Below, in pieces: positions 36,366-63,929 of a stretch of 64,000 nt of DNA; positions within the stretch are counted from its first letter, which is position 1, and each line of letters opens with the position of its first letter. Origin of the DNA: Polyangiales bacterium (lineage in GTDB: Bacteria; Myxococcota_A; Polyangia; Polyangiales; Polyangiaceae); assembly GCA_038231275.1 (NCBI GenBank), contig JBBRLQ010000017.1:131530-195529 (forward strand), given 5' to 3'. Below the pieces are notes generated by a model that saw only the letters and a program-made list of their open reading frames with translations, made no database searches and had not been told where the DNA came from. Both the position numbers and the translations under genes were made by a program.

Positions 36366-36719
36366 ATGAACGACGGAAACAAGAAGGCGACGCTGAAAGA
36401 GCTCACGCCCATCGATCCGGATTTTCTCACGGTCGTCGTCGGAGGCTGCGCGAGCTCGATGAAGGTCATCGGGGTCTCGGACGACGGCGGAGGCGCGCAA
36501 GCCGACGGCGGCGGAGGTGACGGCGGCAGCGGTGACGGTGGCGGAGCCGGCGACGGTGGCGGAGGAGCAGGAGACGGCGGCGGCGGCGGCGACGGCGGCG
36601 GCGGCGACGGCGGCGGCGGCGGCGGCGACGGCGGCGACGGGGGCGGCGGCGGAGGGGATGGCGGCGGAGGGGACGGCGGCGGCGGCGACGGCGGCGGCGG
36701 CGGCGGCGGAGGGGCCTGA
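36366..36719 (+). CDS. Putative RiPP precursor peptide (double-Gly leader, Asp/Gly-repeat core)
   Basis: GAGGAG RBS; leader MNDGNKKATLKELTPIDPDFLTVVVGG; core CASSMKVIGVSD followed by 13 DGG units; first gene before RRE and rSAM genes. Confidence 0.85.
   Translation: MNDGNKKATLKELTPIDPDFLTVVVGGCASSMKVIGVSDDGGGAQADGGGGDGGSGDGGGAGDGGGGAGDGGGGGDGGGGDGGGGGGDGGDGGGGGGDGGGGDGGGGDGGGGGGGGA
36480..36716 (+). repeat. (GAC-GGC-GGC...) low-complexity repeat encoding D-G(2-8) units
   Basis: Direct reading of sequence. Confidence 0.9.
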
Positions 36720-36729
36720 TTCCCGCGCG

Positions 36730-36772
36730 GACGGACGCCCTCGCGCACGACCACGCGCGAGGGCGATCCGTC
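36730..36772 (+). terminator. Strong stem-loop between precursor and maturase genes (mRNA stabiliser/attenuator)
   Basis: GACGGACGCCCTCGCGC-loop8-GCGCGAGGGCGATCCGTC: 17-bp stem with 1-nt bulge; no U-tract. Confidence 0.65.
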
Positions 36773-36810
36773 GGAGACCAGATCGCCTCGCGACCACCAG
36801 GAGACCCACC

Positions 36811-37083
36811 ATGAGCACGTCACGCGTTCCCGTCCTCGCCAAGCACCTGCGCCTCCGCAAGCACGAGCCCGTCGCGTACAACGCGCGGCGCTCCGAGTTG
36901 CACAAGCTCAACGCGACCGCGTATGCGATCTTGGGTCTGGTCGATGGCGCGCGCACGGTCGAGCAGATCGCAGTCGCGTGCATGGACGGCGACGACGCGG
37001 CGGCCGTCGCGTTCGCGCCCAAGGTCGAGACGTTCCTCGAGCGGTGCAAGAGCCAAGACATGATCGCGTGGAGCGCGACGTGA
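36811..37083 (+). CDS. PqqD-family RiPP recognition element (stand-alone RRE)
   Basis: AGGAG RBS; 90 aa; HKLNATAYAILGLVDGARTVEQIA...VETFLERCKSQDMI matches the PqqD LNxTAxxIWxLxDGxRTVxxI pattern. Confidence 0.88.
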   Translation: MSTSRVPVLAKHLRLRKHEPVAYNARRSELHKLNATAYAILGLVDGARTVEQIAVACMDGDDAAAVAFAPKVETFLERCKSQDMIAWSAT

Positions 37084-37997
37084 CCGTCGCCGCGCCGTTC
37101 GCGGTCAGCTGGTATCTCACCAAGCGCTGCGATCTGTCGTGCCGCCACTGCTTCGTGCCGGTGGTGCGCCCCGACGACGCGCGCGGCGAGGTCGACACCG
37201 CCACGGCGAAGCGCTTCATCGCGTCGATCTGGAATTCGGACGTCTACATCCTCTCGTTCGCCGGCGGCGAGCCGATGCTCCGTCAGGATTTCTTCGAGCT
37301 CGCCCGCTTCGCGCGGGACCTCGGGCTCACGGTGCTCACGAGCACCAACGCGCAGCGCCTCGACGACGCCACGCTCGACCGCATCGTCGACGCCGGATTC
37401 CAGTCGCTCCAGGTGAGCCTCGACGGCCTCAGCGCGGCGCCCCACGAGGCGATCCGCGGCGCCGGCACGTTCGACGTCGCGCGCCGCGGGCTCGAGCTCA
37501 CGATGCGGCGGAGCGTGGGGGGGTTGAAGGTGGTCCTCGCCGTGGCGCTCCACCGGCGCATCCTGCCGGAGCTCGACGCGATCCTCGCGTTCGCGCGCGA
37601 AAGCGGCATTTTTTCGCTCAAGCTCCAGCCCGTCGCGCGGCCGTTCCGTTACGCCGACGGCACGCCTGGGCACATCTCGGAAGACGAAGCGGCGCGCGCG
37701 ATCGCCCACGCGAAGCGCGGCCTCGACGGCTCCCGCGTGCAGCTCGCCTACGCGAGCTGGGTCGACCTCTTCCTGCGCGGCGACGCCCGCCAGAGCTGCG
37801 CGCTCGGTCTCCGCACCGCCATCGTCGACGCCGAAGGGCGCGTCTCGACGTGCGACGAGATGCCCGGCACAGGCGACGCCATCGGCGGCTCTTTCTCTGA
37901 CGCGTGGGAGGCCGCCGTCCGCGAGGAGCGCGCCCGCCCGCGCTGCGGTTGCTACGCGTTTCGGGATCGCAAACGGCGTCTACTGGAGGTGGCGTGA
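37080..37997 (+). CDS. Radical SAM enzyme with truncated SPASM (Twitch-like) domain
   Basis: GTGA overlap; CDLSCRHC, FAGGEPML, STNA, VSLDG..HEAIRGAGTF; SC..GRVSTC..CGC at C-terminus. Confidence 0.92.
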   Translation: MTVAAPFAVSWYLTKRCDLSCRHCFVPVVRPDDARGEVDTATAKRFIASIWNSDVYILSFAGGEPMLRQDFFELARFARDLGLTVLTSTNAQRLDDATLDRIVDAGFQSLQVSLDGLSAAPHEAIRGAGTFDVARRGLELTMRRSVGGLKVVLAVALHRRILPELDAILAFARESGIFSLKLQPVARPFRYADGTPGHISEDEAARAIAHAKRGLDGSRVQLAYASWVDLFLRGDARQSCALGLRTAIVDAEGRVSTCDEMPGTGDAIGGSFSDAWEAAVREERARPRCGCYAFRDRKRRLLEVA

Positions 37998-39148
37998 TGC
38001 TCGACGTTCCCGCAACGATCAACTGGTACGTCACCAAGCGCTGCAACCTCGTCTGCACGCACTGCTACAACTACGAGGACGGCGAGGTCCCCCGCGCGAA
38101 GCAGGGAGAGCTCGATCGCGAAGAGGCGATGGCGCTCGGCGAGCGCTTGGTCGACGCCGGCGTCTTCATGATCAACCTGATCGGCGGCGAGCCGCTCACC
38201 GTGCCGTGGCTCGTCGACCTCGTGCGCGTCCTCGCGGACGGCGGAATTCGTGTATCGGTGGCGACGAACGGCACGCTGCTCGACGAGGTGCGCATCGCCG
38301 CGCTGCTGGAGGCCGGCGTCTCGCGCTTCCAGATCAGCCTCGACGGCGCGACGCCGGAGGTGCACGACGCCATCCGCGGCAAGGGCAACTTCGCGCGCGC
38401 GCTTCGCGGCCTGCGTCTCCTCCGCAAGGCCGGCCACGATCCTCAGGTCGCCTTCACCCTCATGAAGTCGAACCAGGGCGAGCTCGAGCCGCTCGTCGCG
38501 CTCCTCCGCCGTGAAGGCATCGGCCTCCTCAAGCTGAGCACCGTCATTCCGAGCGGACGCGCACAAGAGGATCTCGACGAGCTCCTGACCGGCGACGCGC
38601 TACGCGCCCGCATCAACTGGCTGCACCGCGTCGAGAAGGCCTCGCGCGGCGCGCTGCACGTCGACTACCCCTGCTTCGTCGGCCACATCGACGAGAAGAC
38701 CGCGAAGGACGCGTGGAAGCCCGCCGAGAAGGCGCACCACCTCTCGTGCGGGGCCGGCATGACCCGCGCGGTGATCTGGGAGGACGGCAGCGTGGGCGCG
38801 TGCGACTTCATGCGCGAGGATCACGTTGGCGATCTGCGGAAGGACGCGATCAAGGACATCTGGACGAGCGACACCGAGGAGTTCGCGCGATGGCGCCGAC
38901 TCGACAAGGTCGAGAACAAGTGCGGCTCGTGCGGGTACCAGGCCAAATGCGGCTTCGGCTGCCGCGCGAGCGCCTATTTCGGCGGCGGCGATTTCTACGG
39001 GTGGGACCCGATGTGCATCTCGACGCCGCCCCAAGGAGTCGAGCATCCGTGGGAACAGAGTCGGCCGCACGACGAGATCCGCGCGACGACGCCGCTCACC
39101 AAGCGTCGCCTCCCCGTCCTCTCGCCGCGCTCCGGAGCACCGGCGTGA
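37997..39148 (+). CDS. Radical SAM/SPASM domain peptide maturase (PqqE/MftC-like)
   Basis: TGATG overlap; CNLVCTHC, GGEP, ATNGTL, ISLDG..HDAIRGKGNF; SPASM: CGAG..GSVGAC, CGSC..KCGFGC..DPMC. Confidence 0.95.
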   Translation: MLDVPATINWYVTKRCNLVCTHCYNYEDGEVPRAKQGELDREEAMALGERLVDAGVFMINLIGGEPLTVPWLVDLVRVLADGGIRVSVATNGTLLDEVRIAALLEAGVSRFQISLDGATPEVHDAIRGKGNFARALRGLRLLRKAGHDPQVAFTLMKSNQGELEPLVALLRREGIGLLKLSTVIPSGRAQEDLDELLTGDALRARINWLHRVEKASRGALHVDYPCFVGHIDEKTAKDAWKPAEKAHHLSCGAGMTRAVIWEDGSVGACDFMREDHVGDLRKDAIKDIWTSDTEEFARWRRLDKVENKCGSCGYQAKCGFGCRASAYFGGGDFYGWDPMCISTPPQGVEHPWEQSRPHDEIRATTPLTKRRLPVLSPRSGAPA

Positions 39149-50782: not shown

Positions 50783-53700
50783 ATGACCGAGAGCAAGACG
50801 CAGGACGCCGACACGGAATCGCCGCCGAAGGAACGTCCCGCCACGACGAAGGAAAACGGCGCGACTCCCGTTGCGAACACGGCGCCGGAGTCGGCGTCGG
50901 GATCCGCGACGGAATCAGAGTCGGCGTCGGACTCGGAGTCGGCGTCGGACTCGGCGTCGGAGTCGGCGTCCGAGTCGGCATCGGAGTCGACGACGGAGGC
51001 CAAGGGACCGCCGTTGCTCGCGCGAGGGAATCCGCTTCGACGGATGCGCGGCGGGGTGACCGCGGCGGTAGGCGGCGTGGCGGCGTTCCTCTTGATGGCC
51101 CACAACGGGCAGCTTTCGTTCGGCGTGCCGCTCGGCCTCGTCTTCGTGCTCGTGGCGTCGTGGGGGATCATGGATCTCCTCGGCACGTTCGACGACGACG
51201 AGAAGGACGGGATGGTCCTCGCGAGCACGACGACGCTCACTGCGATCCAAGGGCCCGTCGCGTTCACGGTCCTCTCGTTCGGCGCGTTCGCCGGCTGCTT
51301 GTGGGGCGGGCAAGGCGGCGCCGGGCCGCAGATCATGTGGGGCGTCCTCGTCACGATGACGTTCCTCATGTTCGTGACGGGCCTCTTCCGCGTCGGCCAG
51401 GCGCTCGGCCCGTGGGCGAAAGACGAGCTCGGCCTCGATCGCCCCATCCTCAAGCGTCACGGCTTCTGGGTCGTCGCGGTCGGCGCGTTCCTCTACCTCC
51501 CGATGATGGGGAGCTACTCGCTCTGGGATCCGTGGGAGACGCACTACGGCGAGGTCGCGCGTGAGATCCTCGCGCGCGACGACTGGATTTCGCTCTGGTG
51601 GGCGCAGGATGGCTGGTTCTGGTCCAAGCCGATCTTGAATTTCTGGATGCAGGCGCTGTCGATGGCGTCGCTCGGCACGCACTACAAGAGCGACATGATG
51701 ATGACCGGGCTGCTCGGTCACACGGCGCACCCGGAGTGGGTCGTGCGCGCGCCCAACGTGCTGCTGACGATCCTCGCGATGTACGTCATGTACAAAGGCG
51801 TCGCGAAGGTGTTCGGGCGGCGCGCGGGGATGCTCGGCGCGTTCGTCCTCGCGACGACGCCGGACTGGTTCTTCCTCGCGCACCAGACGATGACCGACAT
51901 GCCGTTCGTCGCGGCGATGACGGCGGCGATGGGCCTCCTCATGCTCGGCCTCAACACCGACGAGGAGCAGCGCACGCGCCTCTACCAGCTCGACGTGGGC
52001 TCGCTGAAGCTCCGGCTGAACGGCTGGCATCTCGTCTTCGGCACCATCCTGGTCTGCGCGATCCCGCAGATCCTCTACCTCGCGTCGCGCAACCTCGAGC
52101 TCGTCATCCATGGCAATGGGCCGCACGGCTTCCGCGTGCACTACGACGAGTTCCGAAGCGGCTCGGCCGGCAACTGCGGCCTGCCCGGCAACGAGGCGTG
52201 CAACCTCTCGAACCCGGCGTCGATCCCCAAGGGCATCGTCCCCCACCCCACCGGCGTAGGCCCCAACGCGATGCGCCTCTTCGGTGCGTTCGAGCCGATC
52301 CTCCAGGCGATCGTGTGGTCGCTGGTGGCGGGCGGCCTCCTCTACATCAACTGGGGCGAGCGGCGGATTCGGCGCCTCTATTACATCGCGGCCTGGTTTT
52401 TCGCGGCGATCGCGACGATGGGAAAGGGGCCGGCGGGCTTCGGCATCCCCATCATCTGCGTGTTCGCATACCTCGCGACGAAGAAGCGCTGGAGCGAGCT
52501 GCTCAAGGTCGAGATGCTGAGCGGCCTGCTCGTCATCCTGTGCGTCGCGATCCCGTGGTGGGTCGCGATGTACGTGCGGCACGGTCCACCCTTCACCGAC
52601 CGCATCATCTTCCACGACATGTTCAACCGCGCGTTCAACCACGTTCACGACACGAACGAAGGGGACGACACGAGCTTCCGCTTCTATTTGTGGCAGCTCG
52701 GCTACGCGCTGTTCCCGTGGACCGGGCTCGCGCCGCTGGGGCTCGTGTGGTGGGCGCGCCGCGGCGACTCGGCGGATCACGGCCGGGGTGACGCCTCGGT
52801 CTTCCTCGCGATGTGGTTCGTCTTCGGCTTCGCGCTGTTCTCGTTCATGGGGACCAAATTCCACCACTACATCTTCCCGGCGGTCCCGCCGGCGGCGATG
52901 CTTGTGGGCGTCGTCCTCAGCGACATGATCGGCGATCGCAAGCTCACGCAGCCCGGGCGGCTCGCGGTGTACGTCGCGGGGCTCGTCGCCGGCGCGGCGC
53001 TCGCGGTGGCTGGCGTCACGCGGCTCATGCCTGGATCGTTCTTCGGCACCAAGGATGGCGCGCTCGCGCCTGCCAGCATGCCGATCGGCCTCGCGCTCCT
53101 CGCGACCGGCCTCGTCGGCGTGGTCTTCTGCATGCGCGCGCTGCGTGCGACCTCCGAGGAGCCCGCCGCAGCTACGACCTCGCCCGACGACGAGCGGCGA
53201 CGCATGCACGAGCGGCTGATGATCGGCGCTTCGACCGTGGCAGGCGCGTTCCTGCTCATCTTGGTCGTGCGCGATCTCGCGATCAAGCCCGAAGGCTCGG
53301 ATCAGCCCGGCGCGATCCGCCTGCTCCAGCTCTTCACGTACAACTACCGCCGCTCGTGGCCCGACTCCCTCGACTTCAGCGCCGCGCTCACCGGCTTCGG
53401 CGCGATCGCGATCCTCGCCCTCTTCGCCCTCGCGGTCGCCAAGATCCGGCACCACGCGGTCGCCGCCATGCTTGCGCTCGGCGCGGTGTGGGCGCTGTGG
53501 GGCGTCGACGTCTACATGATCAAGACGGCGCCGCACTGGGGCCAGCACGAGGTCATCGAGGCGTACTACGTCAACCGCCAGTCGAACGAGGAGCCGCTCG
53601 TCGCCTACCAGATGAACTGGAAGGGCGAGAACTTCTACACGTCGAACCGCATCCCGGCGTTCGTGTCGAGCGGAGCCAACTTCACGAATTGGATGAAGAC

Positions 53701-53851
53701 CCAGCGCGAGAAGGGGGTCAAGGTGATGTACTTCGTCACGGAGCACAGCCGCACCGGAGGGCTCCGCAGCGAGGTCGGCGCGAAGGCGTACCGCGAGGTC
53801 ACCGATCGCGCGCTCTGCAACAAATTCGTCCTGGTGCGAGCCGAGCTCTAG
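50783..53851 (+). CDS. ArnT/PMT-like (GT39/GT83) polytopic membrane glycosyltransferase
   Basis: LWDPWETHYGEVAREIL, FWSKPILNFW, WVVRAP, QTMTDMP, ATMGKGPAG, TKFHHYIFPAVPP; many TM helices. Confidence 0.85.
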   Translation: MTESKTQDADTESPPKERPATTKENGATPVANTAPESASGSATESESASDSESASDSASESASESASESTTEAKGPPLLARGNPLRRMRGGVTAAVGGVAAFLLMAHNGQLSFGVPLGLVFVLVASWGIMDLLGTFDDDEKDGMVLASTTTLTAIQGPVAFTVLSFGAFAGCLWGGQGGAGPQIMWGVLVTMTFLMFVTGLFRVGQALGPWAKDELGLDRPILKRHGFWVVAVGAFLYLPMMGSYSLWDPWETHYGEVAREILARDDWISLWWAQDGWFWSKPILNFWMQALSMASLGTHYKSDMMMTGLLGHTAHPEWVVRAPNVLLTILAMYVMYKGVAKVFGRRAGMLGAFVLATTPDWFFLAHQTMTDMPFVAAMTAAMGLLMLGLNTDEEQRTRLYQLDVGSLKLRLNGWHLVFGTILVCAIPQILYLASRNLELVIHGNGPHGFRVHYDEFRSGSAGNCGLPGNEACNLSNPASIPKGIVPHPTGVGPNAMRLFGAFEPILQAIVWSLVAGGLLYINWGERRIRRLYYIAAWFFAAIATMGKGPAGFGIPIICVFAYLATKKRWSELLKVEMLSGLLVILCVAIPWWVAMYVRHGPPFTDRIIFHDMFNRAFNHVHDTNEGDDTSFRFYLWQLGYALFPWTGLAPLGLVWWARRGDSADHGRGDASVFLAMWFVFGFALFSFMGTKFHHYIFPAVPPAAMLVGVVLSDMIGDRKLTQPGRLAVYVAGLVAGAALAVAGVTRLMPGSFFGTKDGALAPASMPIGLALLATGLVGVVFCMRALRATSEEPAAATTSPDDERRRMHERLMIGASTVAGAFLLILVVRDLAIKPEGSDQPGAIRLLQLFTYNYRRSWPDSLDFSAALTGFGAIAILALFALAVAKIRHHAVAAMLALGAVWALWGVDVYMIKTAPHWGQHEVIEAYYVNRQSNEEPLVAYQMNWKGENFYTSNRIPAFVSSGANFTNWMKTQREKGVKVMYFVTEHSRTGGLRSEVGAKAYREVTDRALCNKFVLVRAEL
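50888..50990 (+). repeat. Coding hexamer repeat encoding ESASDS-type linker
   Basis: gagtcggcgtcg/gactcg units. Confidence 0.8.
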
Positions 53852-56550: not shown

Positions 56551-57435
56551 ATGCGTCGCGCACTCCTCGTGCCTTGGCTCGTCGTCGTGTGCTCCTGCAA
56601 GGGGCCGATGGCGAAGATCGAGGCGGTTCGCGACGCGCTCGTTTCCGGTGACGACGCAGCGCTGACGAGCGCGACGAACGGCGTGCCCGCGTGCAAGGAG
56701 CCAGCCCCCGGCGCGGAGCAAGCGTGCCTCGGAGCGATCGCGGCAGCGCTCGGCTCCAAGTCGGGATTCAACGGAACGTCACCAGACCAGGCGTCCGCGG
56801 CGGCCGTCGCCCTCGTCGTCGCCCGCGATCGGCACGGCGAGTGGGCGACGGCGGCCGACGTGTGGCTCTCCGCGATTCGAACCGGGAAGGGAGCGGGCAT
56901 CGACGCGCTCCGGGTCGCGGTGGCGCGGCAGATGGCGGCGAGCGCGCCCGACGTCGGCAAAGCGATCGACGACGACAAGGACACGCGGCCGCTCCTCAAG
57001 GCCGTCGCCGCCGCGATCCCCGGCGCGTGCACCACGTACGCGTCGCTGGGTGCCGGCGCGAACGAAGCGACGCTCTCTCTCGCGGCGATGCCCGATCACT
57101 CCGCGTGCGTGCAGAAGGACCTCGGCCGCAAAGACGGGCCCGGCGGCACCTACGGGCGCGGGCTCCTCCGTGCGGCGGAAGGCGCCGCGGCGATTTGGAA
57201 GGACATGGCGACCGCGCTTCGTGACGGGCTCGGGCTCACGGGCGGCGCTGCGCGGCCCGTCGTCGACACGAAGCTCGCGGCAATCGACGAGGCGACGCGA
57301 AAGCTCGCGCTGAAGAAGGTGCCGCGCGACGACGGCTGGATCAAAGAGATGACCGACTTACACGGCGACGCCGGCGTGCCGTTCGATGGCAAGCCGGCCG
57401 CGAAGGCCGACGCGGGGGCGACGCTTCGTCGTTGA
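56551..57435 (+). CDS. Hypothetical lipoprotein
   Basis: Lipobox VCSC; Ala-rich helical; GC3-rich codons. Confidence 0.7.
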   Translation: MRRALLVPWLVVVCSCKGPMAKIEAVRDALVSGDDAALTSATNGVPACKEPAPGAEQACLGAIAAALGSKSGFNGTSPDQASAAAVALVVARDRHGEWATAADVWLSAIRTGKGAGIDALRVAVARQMAASAPDVGKAIDDDKDTRPLLKAVAAAIPGACTTYASLGAGANEATLSLAAMPDHSACVQKDLGRKDGPGGTYGRGLLRAAEGAAAIWKDMATALRDGLGLTGGAARPVVDTKLAAIDEATRKLALKKVPRDDGWIKEMTDLHGDAGVPFDGKPAAKADAGATLRR

Positions 57436-57543
57436 CCGTCAAACGGTTGGCGCACGACGTCATCGCGACGACGCGGGACCCGAACAAACTGCCCGCATTT
57501 CCAGCTCGCGGCGTCGGCACGGGGCTTGATGAGGAGTCTTGCG

Positions 57544-58290
57544 ATGAGCAAGACAGAGTGGGACTACACCGACCTCGCCGCCGCCTACCTCAAGCGCCCG
57601 GACTACGCGGACTCCGCGATCGACGCCATGCTCGCGAAGGCGGGTGTCGGCGCCGGCGCGCGCGCGTGTGACGTCGGCGCAGGCGTCGCACACCTCACAC
57701 GAATGCTCGAGCACCGCGGGCTTCACGTCGTCGCCGTCGAGCCGAACGACGCCATGCGCGGCTTCGGCAAGACGCGCACGCGCGCCGCCGTGTGGTTCGA
57801 CGGGACGGGCGAGGCGACGGGCCAGCCCTCGTCGGCGTTCGATCTCGTGACCTTCGGGTCCTCCTTCAACGTCACCGATCGCCAGAAGGCGCTCGTCGAG
57901 ACCGCACGCATCGCCCGCTCGCGCGGCTGGTTCGCATGCATGTGGAACCACCGCGACCTCGAAGACCCGCTGCAGGCCGCCATCGAACGCACGATCTCGG
58001 AGCGTGTCGACGGCTACGACTACGGGACGCGACGCGAGGACCAGACCACCGAGATCGACAGGAGCGGCCTCTTCGGGGAGGTCACCAAGATCGAAGGGAA
58101 GGTCGTCCACGCGCAGAGCAAGATGGAGTGCCTCGAGGCGTGGCGCTCGCACGCGACGCTCCAGCGCCAGGCCGGCAAGGCCTTTCCTGCGGTCGTCGAG
58201 GCGATCGCCACCGTGCTCGATCGCCACCCGTCGCCCACCGTCCTCATCCCGTACACGACGCGGATCTGGGTCGCCCAGCTGAAGGGATAA
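57544..58290 (+). CDS. Class I SAM methyltransferase, Cj1419-like (phosphoramidate O-methyltransferase candidate)
   Basis: WDYT, RPDY, DVGAG, VEPNDAMR, VTFGSSFNV, CMWNHRDLEDP, GTRREDQ, YTTRIW. As recalled, these motifs match C. jejuni Cj1419. Confidence 0.85.
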   Translation: MSKTEWDYTDLAAAYLKRPDYADSAIDAMLAKAGVGAGARACDVGAGVAHLTRMLEHRGLHVVAVEPNDAMRGFGKTRTRAAVWFDGTGEATGQPSSAFDLVTFGSSFNVTDRQKALVETARIARSRGWFACMWNHRDLEDPLQAAIERTISERVDGYDYGTRREDQTTEIDRSGLFGEVTKIEGKVVHAQSKMECLEAWRSHATLQRQAGKAFPAVVEAIATVLDRHPSPTVLIPYTTRIWVAQLKG

Positions 58291-58295
58291 GGTCG

Positions 58296-58835
58296 ATGCC
58301 CGGCGTCATCTGGATCACGGGACTCTCGGGCGCCGGCAAGACGACGCTCGCGCGGCGGGTCGTGGGCGCGCTTCGCCAGGACGCGGCGTTCGGCGAGCGT
58401 GCGATCGTTCACGTCGACGGCGACGAGATGCGCGCAGTGTTCGGCGACGATCTCGGGCACGGCCCCGCCGACCGCCGCGCCAACGCGTGGCGAATCGCGC
58501 GCACCTGCGAGCTCCTCGTACGCCAGCAGTGCTTCGTCGTCTGCTCGACGATGAGCATGTTCCAGGAGATCTATGCGCACAACCGCAGCCAGCTCTCGCC
58601 GTACATCGAGATCCTCCTCTCGGTGCCCATGGAGGTGCTCCGCGCGCGCGATTCGAAGGGCATTTACCGAGGTGGCGCGCGCAACGTGGGCGGCGTCGAT
58701 CTCGAGGTGACCTGGCCAAAGACGCCCGATCTCGTGCTCTCGAGCGAGGGCGACGGCGATCTGGCCCGCAATACAGAGCTCGTCGTTGCGCGCGCGCACG
58801 CGATGGTCGGCGACGCCGCGCGGAGGAGCGCGTGA
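58296..58835 (+). CDS. Adenylyl-sulfate kinase (CysC)-like protein; probable cytidine diphosphoramidate 3'-kinase (Cj1415-like)
   Basis: VIWITGLSGAGKTT, DGDEMR, STMSMF, RDSKGIY, NVGGVD; operon context. Confidence 0.85.
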   Translation: MPGVIWITGLSGAGKTTLARRVVGALRQDAAFGERAIVHVDGDEMRAVFGDDLGHGPADRRANAWRIARTCELLVRQQCFVVCSTMSMFQEIYAHNRSQLSPYIEILLSVPMEVLRARDSKGIYRGGARNVGGVDLEVTWPKTPDLVLSSEGDGDLARNTELVVARAHAMVGDAARRSA

Positions 58836-61201
58836 CGCTCGTCTTCGGGACCAAGGCCGAGACGCTTGCGCGCGTGGCGCCACGTGTCACGACCGCGGTC
58901 GTGCCTCCTCGGGTCGCCTTCACCGTCGCGCGATGGCGCGCGGAGCGGGAGCTGGTCCTCGCAGGGGCTGCGTGCCTCGGTAGGCGCGTCGTCGTTCGGA
59001 GCTCCGCGCGCGGCGAAGACGGCCCCCGCGCGTCGATGGCCGGTGCGTTTCTCTCGATCGCGGACGTCGACCCTGCCGACGCGCGCGCCCTCGCGTTCGC
59101 GATCGACCAGGTCGTCGCGTCGTACGCGAAGGGCAATGCCCGCGCGCCTGCCGCCGACGATCAGGTGCTCGTGCAGAAGCAGGTCGAGGACGTGGCGCTC
59201 GCCGGCGTCCTCTTCACCAGTGATCTGGACACGCTCGCGCCGTACTACGTCTTCTCGTACGACGAGTCGGGGAAGACCGACACCGTCACCGGGGGCCATG
59301 AGGGGCGCGTCGCGACCGTCGTACGCTTCAAGCGCGCGCCCACTCCGGTGCGCGACGCCCGCTTCGCGCCGGTCTTCGCCCTCGGCGCCGAGCTCGAAGC
59401 GCTCTTCGCGACGCCGCATCTCGACATCGAGCTCGCCATCGACGCCCGCGGCACGCTCCATCTCCTTCAGGTGCGGCGCCTTGCGAGCGGCAGCCACGTC
59501 CGGCCTCCGAGCGGGCCGGCCCTCGAAGAGCAGCTCGAGAAGGTCGCCAAGAAATGCGAGAAGCTCGCCCTCCCGCACCCCGATCTCGCGGGCGAGGGCA
59601 CGGCGTTCGGCGTAATGCCCGACTGGAACCCCGCCGAGATGATCGGCAAAAAGCCGCGCCGCCTCGCGTTGTCGCTCTACAAGGAGCTGATCACCGACTC
59701 GATCTGGGCCTACCAGCGCGACAACTACGGCTACCGCAACCTGCGCAGCTTCCCACTCCTCGTGTCGCTCATGGGGCACCCGTACGTCGACGTGCGCGTG
59801 AGCTTCAACTCGTTCGTCCCCAAAGATCTCGATCCGCGCATCGCCGACAAGCTCGTCAGCCACTACCTCGCCGAGCTCCGCCGAAGACCCGCCGACCACG
59901 ACAAGGTCGAGTTCAACGTGGTCTACACGTGCGCCTATCCCGGCCTCTCCGAGCGCATCCAGGAGCTCGCCGCCCACGGATTCCGGCCCGGCGAGATCGA
60001 TCGCATCAAGTTTGCGCTGCTCAAGCTCACCAACGGGATCCTCGATCCGGCGCGCGGCCTCTACGCGAAGGATCTCACGAAGGTCGACGAGCTCTCGGCC
60101 CGCCACGCGCGGACGATGTCGAGCGAGATGCCGATCCTCCACAAGATCTACTGGATCGTCGAGGACACCAAGCGCTACGGCACCCTCCCCTTCGCGGGCC
60201 TCGCGCGCGCGGGGTTCGTCGCGATGCAGATCTTGAAGGGCCTCGTCGCCCTCGGCATCTTCACGCCGGCGGATGAGGCCGTGTTCATGCAGTCGCTCGA
60301 GACCGTCTCGAGGCGCATGGCGGGTGACGTCGCGCGCCTCGCGACCGGCGAGGTCTCGCGGGAGGCGTTTCTTGCGGAGTACGGACATCTCCGCCCGGGG
60401 ACGTACGACATCCTCTCGAAGCGCTACGACGAGGACTGGGGCACCTACTTCGGACAAATTGCGTCGCAGGCGCACGCGCCGGAGTCTGCGCGGCCGTTCG
60501 TCCTTCGCCCCGAGCAACGCGACGCGCTCGCCGCAGTCCTGATCGAAGAGGGATTCGAGGTCGGGCCCGACGCGCTGCTCGCCTTCATGCGAGGCGCCAT
60601 CTGCGGCCGCGAGCACGGCAAATTCGTGTTCACCAAGAGCCTGAGCGACCTCCTCGTGCTCCTCGAGCAGCTGGGCGCGCGCTTCGGCGTCTCACGCGAC
60701 GATCTCTCGCACCTCGACATCGGCGCCGTCCTCGCGCTCTACGCGGAGCTCGGCGCGGAGGACGTCGACGCCGTGCTGGTCGCCGACATCGCGCGTGGAA
60801 AGCGCGCACACGCCGTGACGCGGGCGCTCCGACTCCCCCACCTGATCGCTCGCCCCGAGGACGTCTACGAGTTCACGCTTGGTGACGCCGAGCCGAGCTT
60901 CGTGACGCTCGGGCGCGTGCACGCCGAGACGCTCGCGGAGGCGGAGCTCGGGCACGTCGACCCGGCCGGCAAGGTCGTCTTCGTGCGGAGCGCCGATCCC
61001 GGCTACGACTGGCTCTTCGCGCGCAAGATCGCGGGGCTCGTCACCGAGCACGGCGGCGCCAACTCGCACATGGCGATCCGCGCCGCCGAGCTCGGCGTGC
61101 CCAGCGTGATCGGGTGCGGCGAGCAATTGTTCGACGGGCTGTCCCGCGCGAAGGTGATCGAGATCGACTGCGCGAACCGCGTGGTCAGAAAGGTGGCGTG
61201 A
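58832..61201 (+). CDS. PEP-utilizing/ATP-grasp enzyme; probable L-glutamine kinase (Cj1418-like)
   Basis: FGTKAETL, VRSSA.GED..SMAGAF, MPDWNPAEMIG, HDKVEF, GHLRPGTYDI, SADPGYDWLF, GGANSHMAIRAAELG (phospho-His). Confidence 0.9.
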   Translation: MTLVFGTKAETLARVAPRVTTAVVPPRVAFTVARWRAERELVLAGAACLGRRVVVRSSARGEDGPRASMAGAFLSIADVDPADARALAFAIDQVVASYAKGNARAPAADDQVLVQKQVEDVALAGVLFTSDLDTLAPYYVFSYDESGKTDTVTGGHEGRVATVVRFKRAPTPVRDARFAPVFALGAELEALFATPHLDIELAIDARGTLHLLQVRRLASGSHVRPPSGPALEEQLEKVAKKCEKLALPHPDLAGEGTAFGVMPDWNPAEMIGKKPRRLALSLYKELITDSIWAYQRDNYGYRNLRSFPLLVSLMGHPYVDVRVSFNSFVPKDLDPRIADKLVSHYLAELRRRPADHDKVEFNVVYTCAYPGLSERIQELAAHGFRPGEIDRIKFALLKLTNGILDPARGLYAKDLTKVDELSARHARTMSSEMPILHKIYWIVEDTKRYGTLPFAGLARAGFVAMQILKGLVALGIFTPADEAVFMQSLETVSRRMAGDVARLATGEVSREAFLAEYGHLRPGTYDILSKRYDEDWGTYFGQIASQAHAPESARPFVLRPEQRDALAAVLIEEGFEVGPDALLAFMRGAICGREHGKFVFTKSLSDLLVLLEQLGARFGVSRDDLSHLDIGAVLALYAELGAEDVDAVLVADIARGKRAHAVTRALRLPHLIARPEDVYEFTLGDAEPSFVTLGRVHAETLAEAELGHVDPAGKVVFVRSADPGYDWLFARKIAGLVTEHGGANSHMAIRAAELGVPSVIGCGEQLFDGLSRAKVIEIDCANRVVRKVA

Positions 61202-61202
61202 T

Positions 61203-61832
61203 GTGCGAACCGTTCTCGTGACGCAGCGGCTCGTCGAAGAGAGCGCGTACCCCGAGGTGCGTGAGGCGCTCGACGTGCGCTGGGGGCGATTCTTCGCGGA
61301 GCTCGGGCTCCTTCCGGTGCCGATGGCCTACGAGATCGCTCCCGATCACTACGCCTCACTGCAACCTGCGGCGGTCGTCTTGACCGGCGGCAACGACATC
61401 GTCGCGTGCTCCGACACGCCCACGTCGCGACGCCGTGACGCGTACGAGCGCCGCGTCCTCCACGCCGCCGGTGTTCACGATTGGGCTATTTTTGCCGTGT
61501 GCCGCGGCGCGCAGCTCCTCGCCGCCGAAGCGGGCGCGGCGCTGCGCGAGATCGCGGGCCACGTCGGCGCCGAGCACGCGCTCGAGGTCGTGCCTGGCGC
61601 GCCGTTCGCCCCCGAGCTCCAGAACGTGGGCCGTGTGAACTCGTTCCATCGCTGGGCCCCCGACGGCCCGCTTCTGCGCGGCTGGTCGGTCTGCGCGCGC
61701 GGTGACGACGGCGGTGTCGAGGCGATCGCGCACGCGTCGCTGCGCGCCCTCGGCGTGATGTGGCATCCCGAGCGGTACGAGACGCCGCGTCCCTGCGATC
61801 TCGCGCTCGTGCGCGCGGTGGTGGGCTCGTGA
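61203..61832 (+). CDS. Class I glutamine amidotransferase/peptidase C26; probable gamma-glutamyl-CDP-amidate hydrolase (Cj1417-like)
   Basis: VTQRL...YPEVREALDVRW, LTGGND, CRGAQ, VNSFH, MWHPER (Cys-His-Glu triad). Confidence 0.88.
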   Translation: MRTVLVTQRLVEESAYPEVREALDVRWGRFFAELGLLPVPMAYEIAPDHYASLQPAAVVLTGGNDIVACSDTPTSRRRDAYERRVLHAAGVHDWAIFAVCRGAQLLAAEAGAALREIAGHVGAEHALEVVPGAPFAPELQNVGRVNSFHRWAPDGPLLRGWSVCARGDDGGVEAIAHASLRALGVMWHPERYETPRPCDLALVRAVVGS

Positions 61833-62560
61833 GGGCCATCGTCCTCGCTGCCGGTCAGGGCGCACGCCTGCGGCCGCTCACCGACGATCGTCCCAAGTGC
61901 ATGGTCGCCTACAAGGGCATCACGCTCATCGACCGCATCCTCGCGAGCTTGCGGACGGCGGGCATCTCCGACATCGTCGTCGTGAAGGGCTACAAGGCCG
62001 ACTCGCTCCACCCGCCCGGCGCGCGGACCTTCGTGAACGAGAACTACGCCGCCGGCAACATGGTCGCGACCTTGTTCACCGTCGAAGACGAGATCGAGGG
62101 CGACGTCGTCATCACGTACTCCGACATCGCCTACGGCCCCAGCGTCGTGCGAAAGCTCGCGGAGTCCGACGCCGACATCTCGATCGTCATCGACCTCGCC
62201 TGGCGCGAGCTCTGGCAGAAGCGTATGAGCGATCCCCTCGCCGACGCCGAGACGCTCAAGCTAGACGGGCGCGGCCGTGTCCGCGAGCTCGGAAAGAAGC
62301 CGTGGTCGTACGCCGACATCGAGGGGCAGTACATCGGCCTCATCAAGCTCACCGCCCGCGGCGCCGAGCGCTTGCGTGCACTCTACACGCGCCTTGATCG
62401 GACCGCGCTCTACGACGGGCAGCCGTTCGAGAAGATGTTCATGACGAGCCTCCTTCAGCGCGCCATCGACGCGGGCATCGAGGTTCGGGCGGTGCCGATC
62501 CGCGGCGGCTGGATCGAGATCGACGCGCCGAGCGACTTGGAGATCGACGTCGCCGTCTGA
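61829..62560 (+). CDS. Phosphocholine-cytidylyltransferase-family NTP transferase; probable CTP:phosphoglutamine cytidylyltransferase (Cj1416-like)
   Basis: LAAGQGARLRPLTDDRPKCMV, YSDI, DPLADAETLK, IEGQYIGL, MTSLLQ, WIEID. Confidence 0.9.
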   Translation: MRAIVLAAGQGARLRPLTDDRPKCMVAYKGITLIDRILASLRTAGISDIVVVKGYKADSLHPPGARTFVNENYAAGNMVATLFTVEDEIEGDVVITYSDIAYGPSVVRKLAESDADISIVIDLAWRELWQKRMSDPLADAETLKLDGRGRVRELGKKPWSYADIEGQYIGLIKLTARGAERLRALYTRLDRTALYDGQPFEKMFMTSLLQRAIDAGIEVRAVPIRGGWIEIDAPSDLEIDVAV

Positions 62561-63792
62561 GGTGCGGTGGCGTTCGGCGGAGGCTTCAGGCCCCCGCCGA
62601 GCGGGCGCGGCAGTGGCAGAAGCGCGCGGATCGCGCGAGGAAGCACCGCGCGGGCGAGGTGGCGATAGGTGTAGCCCCACCGCGTGAGCATGCCCCGGGC
62701 GGCCTCGATAGGCGCCTGGGCAAAGGCGCCGCGCTCGGCCTTCGTCGGCGCGTGCATGAGGAGCGGCGCGAGGAGCCGCGCGTGCCAGCGCGCGCGGTCG
62801 TAGCCATGGTCGCGGCGGAACGCGGCGAGCAGCCCCTCGAGCACGTAGCGATCGAAGGCGTCGAGCGCCTCGTCCGTCGTATCGGCGGCCTGCCGAGTGT
62901 GTGCGCTGCTGAAGCCGTTCTGCCGCTTCACCGCCATTTGATCGCCCCAGTACGCGAGGCCGCCCCACGTGCTCGCGAGGAGCCGCTCGTCCCACGCGAT
63001 CCCCAGCCACTGCGCGAGGCGCGTCATCGTCGCGCGCGGTGCGTCGTGGAGATCCTCGAGCCGCACCTCGTAGCGCCGCATCGCGCGTCGATCGAACAGC
63101 TCGCTCCACCCCGTGAGCTGGTGGCGGTAGAGCGCGTGGTAGCCGCCGGTCCGCGCCATCCTGGCGTAGGTCGCGCGATCGTCTTGCCCGAGAATGCCCG
63201 CGAGGTCGCGGTTCTTCCGGAGGTACGACGCGAGCGATCGGACGGGATCCCGCACCGTTCCGATCGCGACCATCTCTGGGAAATCTTCGAGCGCCGCACC
63301 GATACCGTCGTAGGCCTCGGGGGAGTGGAGGTGGTAGAGGAGGACCTTCTTCTTCGACACGTCCTCGCCGCGCGCCTCGGCGTACGCGAAGTGCGCGGCG
63401 AGGAAGAAGTCCCGCCGGCGGATGGCGCCAGGAGCGCGCGACGGCAACCGAGCAAGCAGCGCGTCCGTGAAGCGGTCGGCGTCGACGAACAGCGGCGTGT
63501 CCTTCGCCGGCCCCAGATCGGCGAGGCCCTCGAACCAGCGATCCGCGCGTCCGTCGAAGCACGACGGGTTCCAGGCGATGAACTTCGCGACCATCTCCTC
63601 GCGTGTGGCGGCGTTGGCGATGTCAGCCCATTGACGGTGGTGGAAGGAATTGACACGCGTCGCTGGGAACGTGAGCACCTCGGGGTGCCCATCGAAGAGG
63701 CTGTGCAGGAACACCGTGCCGCTTCTTCCCCAGAAAAACAGCGCGGCGACGCGAACGTCGGGGGCGGCGATGCGTGCGGCCTCGAATGGCAT
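62455..63792 (-). CDS. Sulfotransferase-family protein
   Basis: 5'-PSB loop GRSGTVFLHSLFDGHPEV, 3'-PB motif VRDPVRSLAS, VRLEDL..P..TM..LA.WLGI; overlaps the preceding gene convergently. Confidence 0.8.
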   Translation of the reverse strand: MPFEAARIAAPDVRVAALFFWGRSGTVFLHSLFDGHPEVLTFPATRVNSFHHRQWADIANAATREEMVAKFIAWNPSCFDGRADRWFEGLADLGPAKDTPLFVDADRFTDALLARLPSRAPGAIRRRDFFLAAHFAYAEARGEDVSKKKVLLYHLHSPEAYDGIGAALEDFPEMVAIGTVRDPVRSLASYLRKNRDLAGILGQDDRATYARMARTGGYHALYRHQLTGWSELFDRRAMRRYEVRLEDLHDAPRATMTRLAQWLGIAWDERLLASTWGGLAYWGDQMAVKRQNGFSSAHTRQAADTTDEALDAFDRYVLEGLLAAFRRDHGYDRARWHARLLAPLLMHAPTKAERGAFAQAPIEAARGMLTRWGYTYRHLARAVLPRAIRALLPLPRPLGGGLKPPPNATAPQTATSISKSLGASISIQPPRIGTARTSMPASMAR

Positions 63793-63853: not shown

Positions 63854-63929
63854 TCCGATTTAGCTCAGTTGGTAGAGCAGGCGGCTGTTAACCGCCGGGT
63901 CGCTGGTTCGAGTCCAGCAGTCGGAGCCA
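63854..63929 (+). tRNA. tRNA-Asn (GTT)
   Basis: Acceptor TCCGATT/AGTCGGA, D-arm AGCTCAGTTGGTAGAGC, anticodon GTT at 63887-63889, TTCGA T-loop, encoded CCA; 76 nt. Confidence 0.97.

Follow-up and report, generated by a model that had tools for sequence, protein, structure and literature searches.

A sulfotransferase-fold protein facing a glutamine-kinase operon in a Polyangiales bacterium as candidate phosphoramidate transferase

Transfer of the modifying group is the uncharacterized part of the O-methyl phosphoramidate pathway. Here we describe a 64,000-nucleotide stretch of DNA from a Polyangiales bacterium (hereafter the window), which is the final 64 kb of a 195.5-kb contig in a genome of 9.28 Mb (164 contigs, estimated 94% complete), and in particular one minus-strand gene encoding a protein with a sulfotransferase fold. 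This gene stands tail-to-tail with a complete operon for the donor, a combination met again in many bacterial groups, and its product therefore probably transfers phosphoramidate, or the methyl ester of it, from 3'-phospho-cytidine diphosphate (CDP)-amidate to an acceptor. Comparative genomics and structure prediction support this interpretation, in which donor, chemistry, catalytic base and the stage at which methylation takes place are inferred. A 445-residue protein of well-understood fold, with many relatives linked to glutamine kinases, offers testable candidates for the transferase.

The five plus-strand genes at 57526-62560 make up the full Cj1415-Cj1418-type pathway together with a methyltransferase (Table 1). 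The four corresponding enzymes of Campylobacter jejuni yield CDP-phosphoramidate 3'-phosphate, 'the likely donor' (PMC11800397). The glutamine kinase is recognized by NF004508 with 911 bits (cut-off 501), the match beginning at residue 114 of the open reading frame (ORF), and the hydrolase matches the gamma-glutamyl-CDP-amidate hydrolase model NF045546 with 129 bits, below its cut-off of 250. Relatives of the nucleotidyltransferase and of the methyltransferase adjoin a glutamine kinase in most of the 80 kinase-anchored loci described below, those of Campylobacter included in the case of the methyltransferase. The first-pass annotation of this DNA had ascribed the making of the pathway's donor to a homologue of adenosine 5'-phosphosulfate (APS) kinase. 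Such a gene is indeed present in the operon, and it passes the PRK05541 model (133.8 bits, cut-off 127) and fails that of canonical apsK (TIGR00455, 89 bits, cut-off 138.7); by these profile scores it is of the Cj1415 type and not of the CysC type. PRK05541 gave 267.9 bits with the operon kinase of Campylobacter coli and 137-196 bits with four other kinases from glutamine-kinase operons.

A large protein collection contains 41 homologues of the window protein, 38 of them at 47% identity or more, labelled Polyangiaceae or Myxococcales. DNA was obtained for eight loci of this close subfamily (46-83% identity), namely L001, from the same genus, and the seven metagenome loci L108-L114; in three of these (L111, L112 and L114) the DNA runs out at the gene or no more than about 230 bp from it, and they were left out of the synteny count. 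The complete operon stands tail-to-tail with the sulfotransferase-fold gene in L001, L108, L109 and L113, and in L110 the convergent nucleotidyltransferase and hydrolase genes are followed by the contig end, so that the convergent pairing with a glutamine-kinase operon is found in all five close-subfamily loci with enough downstream DNA. Among more distant relatives from species-representative genomes (21-31% identity), a glutamine kinase lies within 10 kb at 7 of 16 loci, and three more of these genomes encode one elsewhere. The seven loci with a nearby kinase are labelled Myxococcales, Holophagales, Kordiimonadales, Minwuia, Pseudobdellovibrionaceae and Gammaproteobacteria. Two distant relatives without a glutamine kinase (L008:11088-14725 and L009:5747-11200) lie beside a protein consisting of a pyruvate-kinase barrel only; L008 additionally carries a canonical APS kinase, a nucleoside triphosphate (NTP) transferase and a GT4 glycosyltransferase, and L009 a B12-radical-SAM enzyme and an ABC transporter.

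The association is also seen from the side of the kinase, which has at least 580 relatives in species-representative genomes. At the best 80 of these, the profile of the window family directly matched a gene in 18 loci and, after iteration, in 45; six of the latter are proteins with the DUF2972 domain, leaving 39 loci with a sulfotransferase-like gene. The co-occurrence with Cj1418-like genes that the first-pass annotation had proposed as a check is thus found both here (39 of 80) and in the close subfamily (five of five). Because profile iteration can drift, 28 of the sulfotransferase-like neighbours were scanned with Pfam: Sulfotransfer_1, Sulfotransfer_3 or both were found at E <= 0.01 in 26, of which 24 clearly exceed the curated cut-off, one equals it and one falls short of it; the remaining two match nothing. 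No more than 300 bp separate the sulfotransferase-like gene from a pathway gene in 35 of the 39 loci, and the distance is within 1 kb in 37; random placement would scatter matches across the 10-kb flanks. DUF2972 itself occurs in 15 of the 80 loci; 14 are records of Campylobacter/Helicobacter type, and the fifteenth is a 9e-4 match on a gene that scores better as sulfotransferase-like. Labels of the kinase loci (L017-L096) include a Thermoplasmatales archaeon, Paceibacterota, Peregrinibacteria, Sericytochromatia, Planctomycetota, Bacteroidota, Clostridia and Spirochaetes. In a sample of 201 genomes at the level of the order, a glutamine kinase was found in two, each with an adjoining sulfotransferase-family gene; in the second genome (L022) this is a Sulfotransfer_3 gene of another subfamily, which ends 11 bp before the kinase ORF. 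At E <= 1e-10 a gene of the window type was found in one of the 201, the window's own genome, so that phylogenetic profiling among kin yields no information other than that from the two genomes with a glutamine kinase. Beside two glutamine-kinase operons the sulfotransferase domain is part of a larger protein: a 1249-residue fusion with a family 2 (GT2) glycosyltransferase at L034:3557-7303, and an 1169-residue protein with two tandem sulfotransferase domains and tetratricopeptide (TPR) repeats at L018:14915-18421.

An ordinary sulfotransferase dependent on 3'-phosphoadenosine 5'-phosphosulfate (PAPS), decorating the same or another molecule and adjoining the operon since decoration genes cluster, is an alternative that we regard as unlikely. 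It would account for the membership of the protein in Sulfotransfer_3 and for its intact PAPS-type motifs and fold. Furthermore, relatives at 25-31% identity adjoin APS kinases over the TIGR00455 cut-off, i.e. canonical ones, with no glutamine kinase beside them (L008, L128, L129, L134, L135 and L146). The supply of PAPS was addressed by profile searches of the whole 9.28-Mb genome, of which about 6% may be missing. A single APS-kinase (PF01583) match was found, the operon kinase itself. As the first-pass annotation had stated, the window holds no ATP sulfurylase; PF01747 matches nothing in the whole genome, and CysD is present once, on a different contig (C3). The gene content thus suggests that this 94% complete genome is able to make APS, and no dedicated PAPS route was seen in it, since its only APS-kinase homologue is the Cj1415-type gene of the operon. 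The sole PF01583 match in the window genome and in its same-genus relative is an operon kinase of about 91 bits, with no canonical APS kinase found in either, whereas PF01583 matches are present in 35 of 41 sampled genomes of the same family, many of them lying in long open frames and reaching 180-245 bits. A PAPS-dependent enzyme would, moreover, leave the operon without any transferase: the window gene is the only PF13469 match in the genome, which has one true glutamine kinase, and DUF2972 (PF11186), the 'O-methyl phosphoramidate transferase' model NF058596 and the TagF-like family PF04464 all gave no match genome-wide. PF11186 was found in three of three Campylobacter/Helicobacter genomes searched as a positive control. 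Among the families searched, the 94% complete genome contains no other candidate for the transfer step, and the separate Cj1421-like transferase that would have spoken against the first-pass proposal did not appear. The compact layouts described above, with gaps of 300 bp or less in 35 of 39 loci, likewise argue against a PAPS-dependent enzyme.

Phylogeny points in the same direction. In a quick maximum-likelihood tree of 73 sulfotransferase domains (LG+G4, branch support by the Shimodaira-Hasegawa-like approximate likelihood-ratio test, SH-aLRT, only), the window gene falls in an eight-row clade with support 100, of which five rows are linked to a glutamine kinase, one to a partial operon, and two stand on contigs too short to tell. 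The enclosing clade of 27 rows (support 96) contains no row linked to a canonical APS kinase, which speaks against PAPS dependence; seven of the eight rows so linked are in a separate 20-row clade. The glutamine-kinase label changes 13 times on the tree as against a mean of 23.7 after shuffling, and none of 500 shuffles was as low. Genomic context follows phylogeny. Since labels are shared among kin and the tree has several long branches and an arbitrarily placed root, no direction of change is claimed. As to the kinases beside other relatives, those of L139 and L003 are of ambiguous type, and PRK05541-type kinases occur at L120, L124, L126, L127, L132, L136, L137 and L151; other operon pieces are present at L120, L126, L127 and L137, the contigs of L120, L126 and L137 being only 2-4 kb long. 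Directly after the loop Ser/Thr (V27 in the window protein), 13 of 13 rows from the canonical-kinase clade have Asp, and the 16 listed glutamine-kinase-linked rows that cover the loop have a hydrophobic residue. Just two columns, window positions 36 and 269, differ consistently between the groups, position 36 being mostly Pro in one and Asn in the other. The alignment suggests the post-loop residue and position 36 as candidate specificity positions, with no bearing shown on the base that is bound.

The family model, the sequence motifs and the predicted fold all place the window protein in the sulfotransferase superfamily. PF13469 (Sulfotransfer_3) matches residues 23-269 with 57.3 bits (cut-off 27, E 3.5e-15), PF00685 stays under its cut-off (19.7 against 22 bits), and a scan against NCBIfam found no model at E <= 0.01. 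The two motifs singled out by the first-pass annotation as PAPS-binding, GRSGT and RDP..S, are conserved across an alignment (A1) of 20 homologues at 30-83% identity and are therefore not a matter of chance. We take GRSGT to be the counterpart of the 5'-phosphosulfate-binding loop of sulfotransferases, and RDPVRSLAS presumably corresponds to their 3'-phosphate-binding Arg...Ser motif. No transmembrane segment was noted by eye. In an AlphaFold2 model (mean predicted local distance difference test, pLDDT, 71.7; predicted template modelling score, pTM, 0.75), the best solved structural neighbours are sulfotransferases, the nearest including the sulfotransferase domains of CurM and olefin synthase (4gbm, 4gox) as well as heparan sulfate 3-O- and N-sulfotransferases.

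The first-pass annotation also reported that the gene overlaps the end of the convergent operon by 106 bp. This is correct (62455-62560, the nucleotidyltransferase ORF ending at 62560), and the overlap lies wholly inside a C-terminal tail that varies among homologues: conservation ceases near residue 405 (nt 62578), 18 bp before the convergent gene is reached, and pLDDT is below 50 at residues 407-445. As it is confined to this unconserved, low-pLDDT tail, the overlap seems to be an accidental consequence of the position of the first stop codon and not a functional feature. One might go further and see in the 40 unconserved residues overlapping the neighbouring gene the read-through of a dead ORF, the whole being a decaying or unrelated gene whose position has no functional meaning. 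Such an explanation is most improbable, given that the core is conserved over the 38 homologues at 47% identity or more, that synteny is kept down to 46% identity, and that GC content at third codon positions is 0.88, typical of the window (0.81-0.95 in its other kept ORFs), which has an even G+C content of about 69%.

Known transferases of the pathway come from C. jejuni, where deletion of Cj1421 or Cj1422 leads to loss of the modification; in the sources cited, this genetic and nuclear magnetic resonance (NMR) evidence is from C. jejuni alone (PMC11800397, PMC9561416). These transferases are reported to be phase-variable and to consist of an N-terminal region common to both, a transmembrane segment (predicted) and, at the C-terminus, DUF2972 (PMC5808241). 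They too are encoded beside Cj1415-Cj1418 homologues and a methyltransferase, but the Campylobacter proteins have about 600 residues with an extra N-terminal region, whereas the window protein is shorter and its gene is convergent to the operon. The window protein matches neither NF058596 nor PF11186. The first-pass annotation had treated Cj1421/Cj1422 as a different kind of enzyme, and this has to be corrected. A C. coli member of their family (L059:6878-8281; PF11186 148.8 bits, NF058596 289.8 bits, below the 600-bit cut-off) itself models as a sulfotransferase fold (pLDDT 70.7, pTM 0.65), with the best PDB rows in Foldseek being mostly sulfotransferases at E 3.5e-3 and weaker, so that the window gene is more aptly regarded as a remote structural relative occupying the same place in the pathway. 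An alignment (A3) of this protein with nine other DUF2972 proteins shows no variation at G104, which belongs to an SHGxG loop, or at R179-D180-P181-I182, which contains the RDP motif seen in the window protein. When the iterated profile of the window family was run against a small database, DUF2972 proteins were matched at E 6e-4 to 3e-5. On these models, Cj1421/Cj1422-type proteins are predicted to share fold and motif order with the window protein, in the absence of a detectable common sequence family, and the window gene is probably a member of the sulfotransferase superfamily that works like Cj1421/Cj1422 while standing outside their sequence family.

In the mechanism we propose, a soluble group transferase of sulfotransferase fold would use the operon product, and not PAPS, as donor, this being 3'-phospho-cytidine-5'-diphosphoramidate or its O-methyl form made by the adjacent methyltransferase. 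If the reaction parallels sulfuryl transfer, the 5'-diphospho-amidate would sit in the GRSGT loop and the 3'-phosphate would be bound by R181 and S189; a conserved base, for which H154, H156 and E159 are candidates, would activate the acceptor hydroxyl. The phosphoramidyl group would then be transferred and cytidine 3',5'-bisphosphate released, as adenosine 3',5'-bisphosphate (PAP) is from PAPS. The scheme resembles the PAPS system of ATP sulfurylase, CysC and sulfotransferase in that a homologue of APS kinase provides a 3'-phosphorylated nucleotide anhydride and a P-loop-like transferase releases a nucleoside 3',5'-bisphosphate. It differs in the group transferred, a phosphoramidate with its P-N bond, in the base, which is cytosine, and in the origin of the donor, which is built from glutamine by a kinase of the type using phosphoenolpyruvate (PEP). 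Similarly, unlike PAPS-dependent Sulfotransfer_3 enzymes such as those of CurM, olefin synthase and heparan sulfate, the window protein is encoded in a context that supplies a cytidine phosphoramidate donor.

The acceptor is likely a glycan, by analogy with Campylobacter and because of the GT2 fusion in L034. It is also conceivable, and in our view quite improbable, that the enzyme uses the operon nucleotide for something other than decorating a glycan, i.e. that it modifies a small molecule, lipid or protein, or that it hydrolyses or recycles the donor. CurM and olefin-synthase sulfotransferase domains, which are among its structural neighbours, act on carrier-protein-bound acyl chains, and the surroundings of the gene offer no polysaccharide genes in the window or in close relatives. 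Sugars are favoured by the L034 fusion and by the neighbours of heparan-sulfate type, and such an enzyme would differ from the phosphoramidate transferase proposed here in its acceptor alone.

Several observations weigh against the proposed phosphoramidate transferase. The window protein retains intact PAPS-type motifs, its loop and Arg...Ser motif are conserved to the same degree in the canonical-kinase clade, and binding of cytidine is not distinguished from that of adenine by the sequence data. The presence of CysD implies that APS is made, and the operon kinase could in principle also yield PAPS. Six of the 16 genomes with distant relatives of the gene show no glutamine kinase (0.8-4.6 Mb, completeness unstated). 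No polysaccharide export or glycosyltransferase genes turned up near the window gene or in L001, L108, L109 and L110, the genes near it and its close relatives encoding an acyl-CoA dehydrogenase, a hypothetical protein or a Rieske/metallo-beta-lactamase-fold protein. The link to the known transferases is weak: the two structure models reach intermediate confidence (pLDDT about 71), comparison of alignments A1 and A3 by hhalign gave E 0.059 and a probability of 0.93 over 35 columns centred on the RDP motif, and none of ten DUF2972 proteins matches the Pfam sulfotransferase models at E <= 5. The 80 kinase-anchored loci are the best of at least 580 and so were not drawn at random; two of them, L017 and L032, come from contigs already represented by L001 and L014. 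Finally, 26 of the 80 have neither a sulfotransferase-like nor a DUF2972 gene. In 15 of these that were inspected, sulfatase-family genes of the alkaline-phosphatase superfamily (560-620 residues) flank the operon in five (L026, L036, L061, L081 and L088), and TagF-like glycerophosphotransferases are neighbours in three (L060, L081 and L095). The transferase slot is therefore not always filled by a sulfotransferase fold, and other folds may perform the transfer step in other lineages. Several operons lacking both kinds of gene carry a Formyl_trans_N-like gene and no methyltransferase, and may represent a different version of the pathway.

Whether sulfotransferase-fold enzymes are general catalysts of biological phosphoramidate transfer, Sulfotransfer_1 and Sulfotransfer_3 members in many phyla and the divergent DUF2972 proteins in Campylobacter and Helicobacter, seems to us evenly balanced. 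If so, the superfamily would have switched between sulfate and phosphoramidate donors at least once, and a 'Campylobacter-specific' modification would be made by hundreds of bacterial and some archaeal species. Reviews have called the kinase C. jejuni-specific (PMC9561416) and the modification Campylobacter-only (PMC6429109); with at least 580 kinase relatives, the pathway extends far beyond Campylobacter. The present analysis also offers a structural rationale for Cj1421/Cj1422 and suggests that a sulfotransferase fold can accept a donor other than sulfate. Our literature search, whose coverage did not extend to key papers of the Raushel laboratory, found no paper linking sulfotransferases to the phosphoramidate pathway and no statement that Cj1421/Cj1422 share the sulfotransferase fold. 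In 2025 the enzymology of the decoration was still future work for that laboratory (PMC12409886).

Table 1. Coordinates of the sulfotransferase-fold gene, its motifs and the neighbouring features in the window
Feature	Position	Strand	Remarks
SAM (S-adenosylmethionine)-dependent methyltransferase (Cj1419/Cj1420 position)	57526..58290	+	Methyltransf_11
APS-kinase homologue, Cj1415 type (CDP-amidate 3'-kinase-like)	58299..58835	+	PF01583, 88 bits
L-glutamine kinase (Cj1418-like)	58826..61201 (start approximate, ORF open from 58487)	+	NF004508
Glutamine-amidotransferase-fold hydrolase (Cj1417-like)	61203..61832	+	NF045546 and Peptidase_C26
Nucleotidyltransferase, Cj1416 position (phosphoglutamine cytidylyltransferase-like)	61832..62560 (alternative start 61760)	+	PF12804, PF00483
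Sulfotransferase-fold gene, candidate phosphoramidate/methyl-phosphoramidate transferase	62455..63792	-	445 aa, ATG start
Non-conserved C-terminal tail (residues 406-445 and stop)	62455..62577	-	Length and sequence vary among 20 homologues
RDPVRSLAS codons (residues 181-189)	63226..63252	-	R181, P183 and S189 invariant
GRSGT codons (residues 22-26)	63715..63729	-	G22, R23 and G25 at least 90% conserved
tRNA-Asn (GTT)	63854..63929	+	ARAGORN; 62 bp past the start of the sulfotransferase-fold gene

On the side of the gene's start, the contig ends (position 64000) 71 bp after the tRNA-Asn gene, and in the same-genus genome (the L001/L017 contig) it likewise stops 129 bp beyond the start of the gene; a repeat or an island border may follow the contig end there. 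On the other side, a protein of about 290 residues with a lipoprotein-like N-terminus and no Pfam family is encoded at 56551-57435 (+), between the acyl-CoA dehydrogenase and the operon. ORFs of 285-293 residues, also without a Pfam family, occupy the same place at L001:6577-7458 and L108:6715-7572, as matched by size and position. Further upstream, 3.7 kb from the operon, lies a gene for a 1022-residue membrane protein of the PMT_2 glycosyltransferase family with a Ser/Glu/Ala-rich N-terminal repeat (50783-53851, +). At 36517-39148 (+) a PqqD-like protein is followed by two radical-SAM proteins, one of them with a SPASM domain, a layout typical of peptide-modification clusters.

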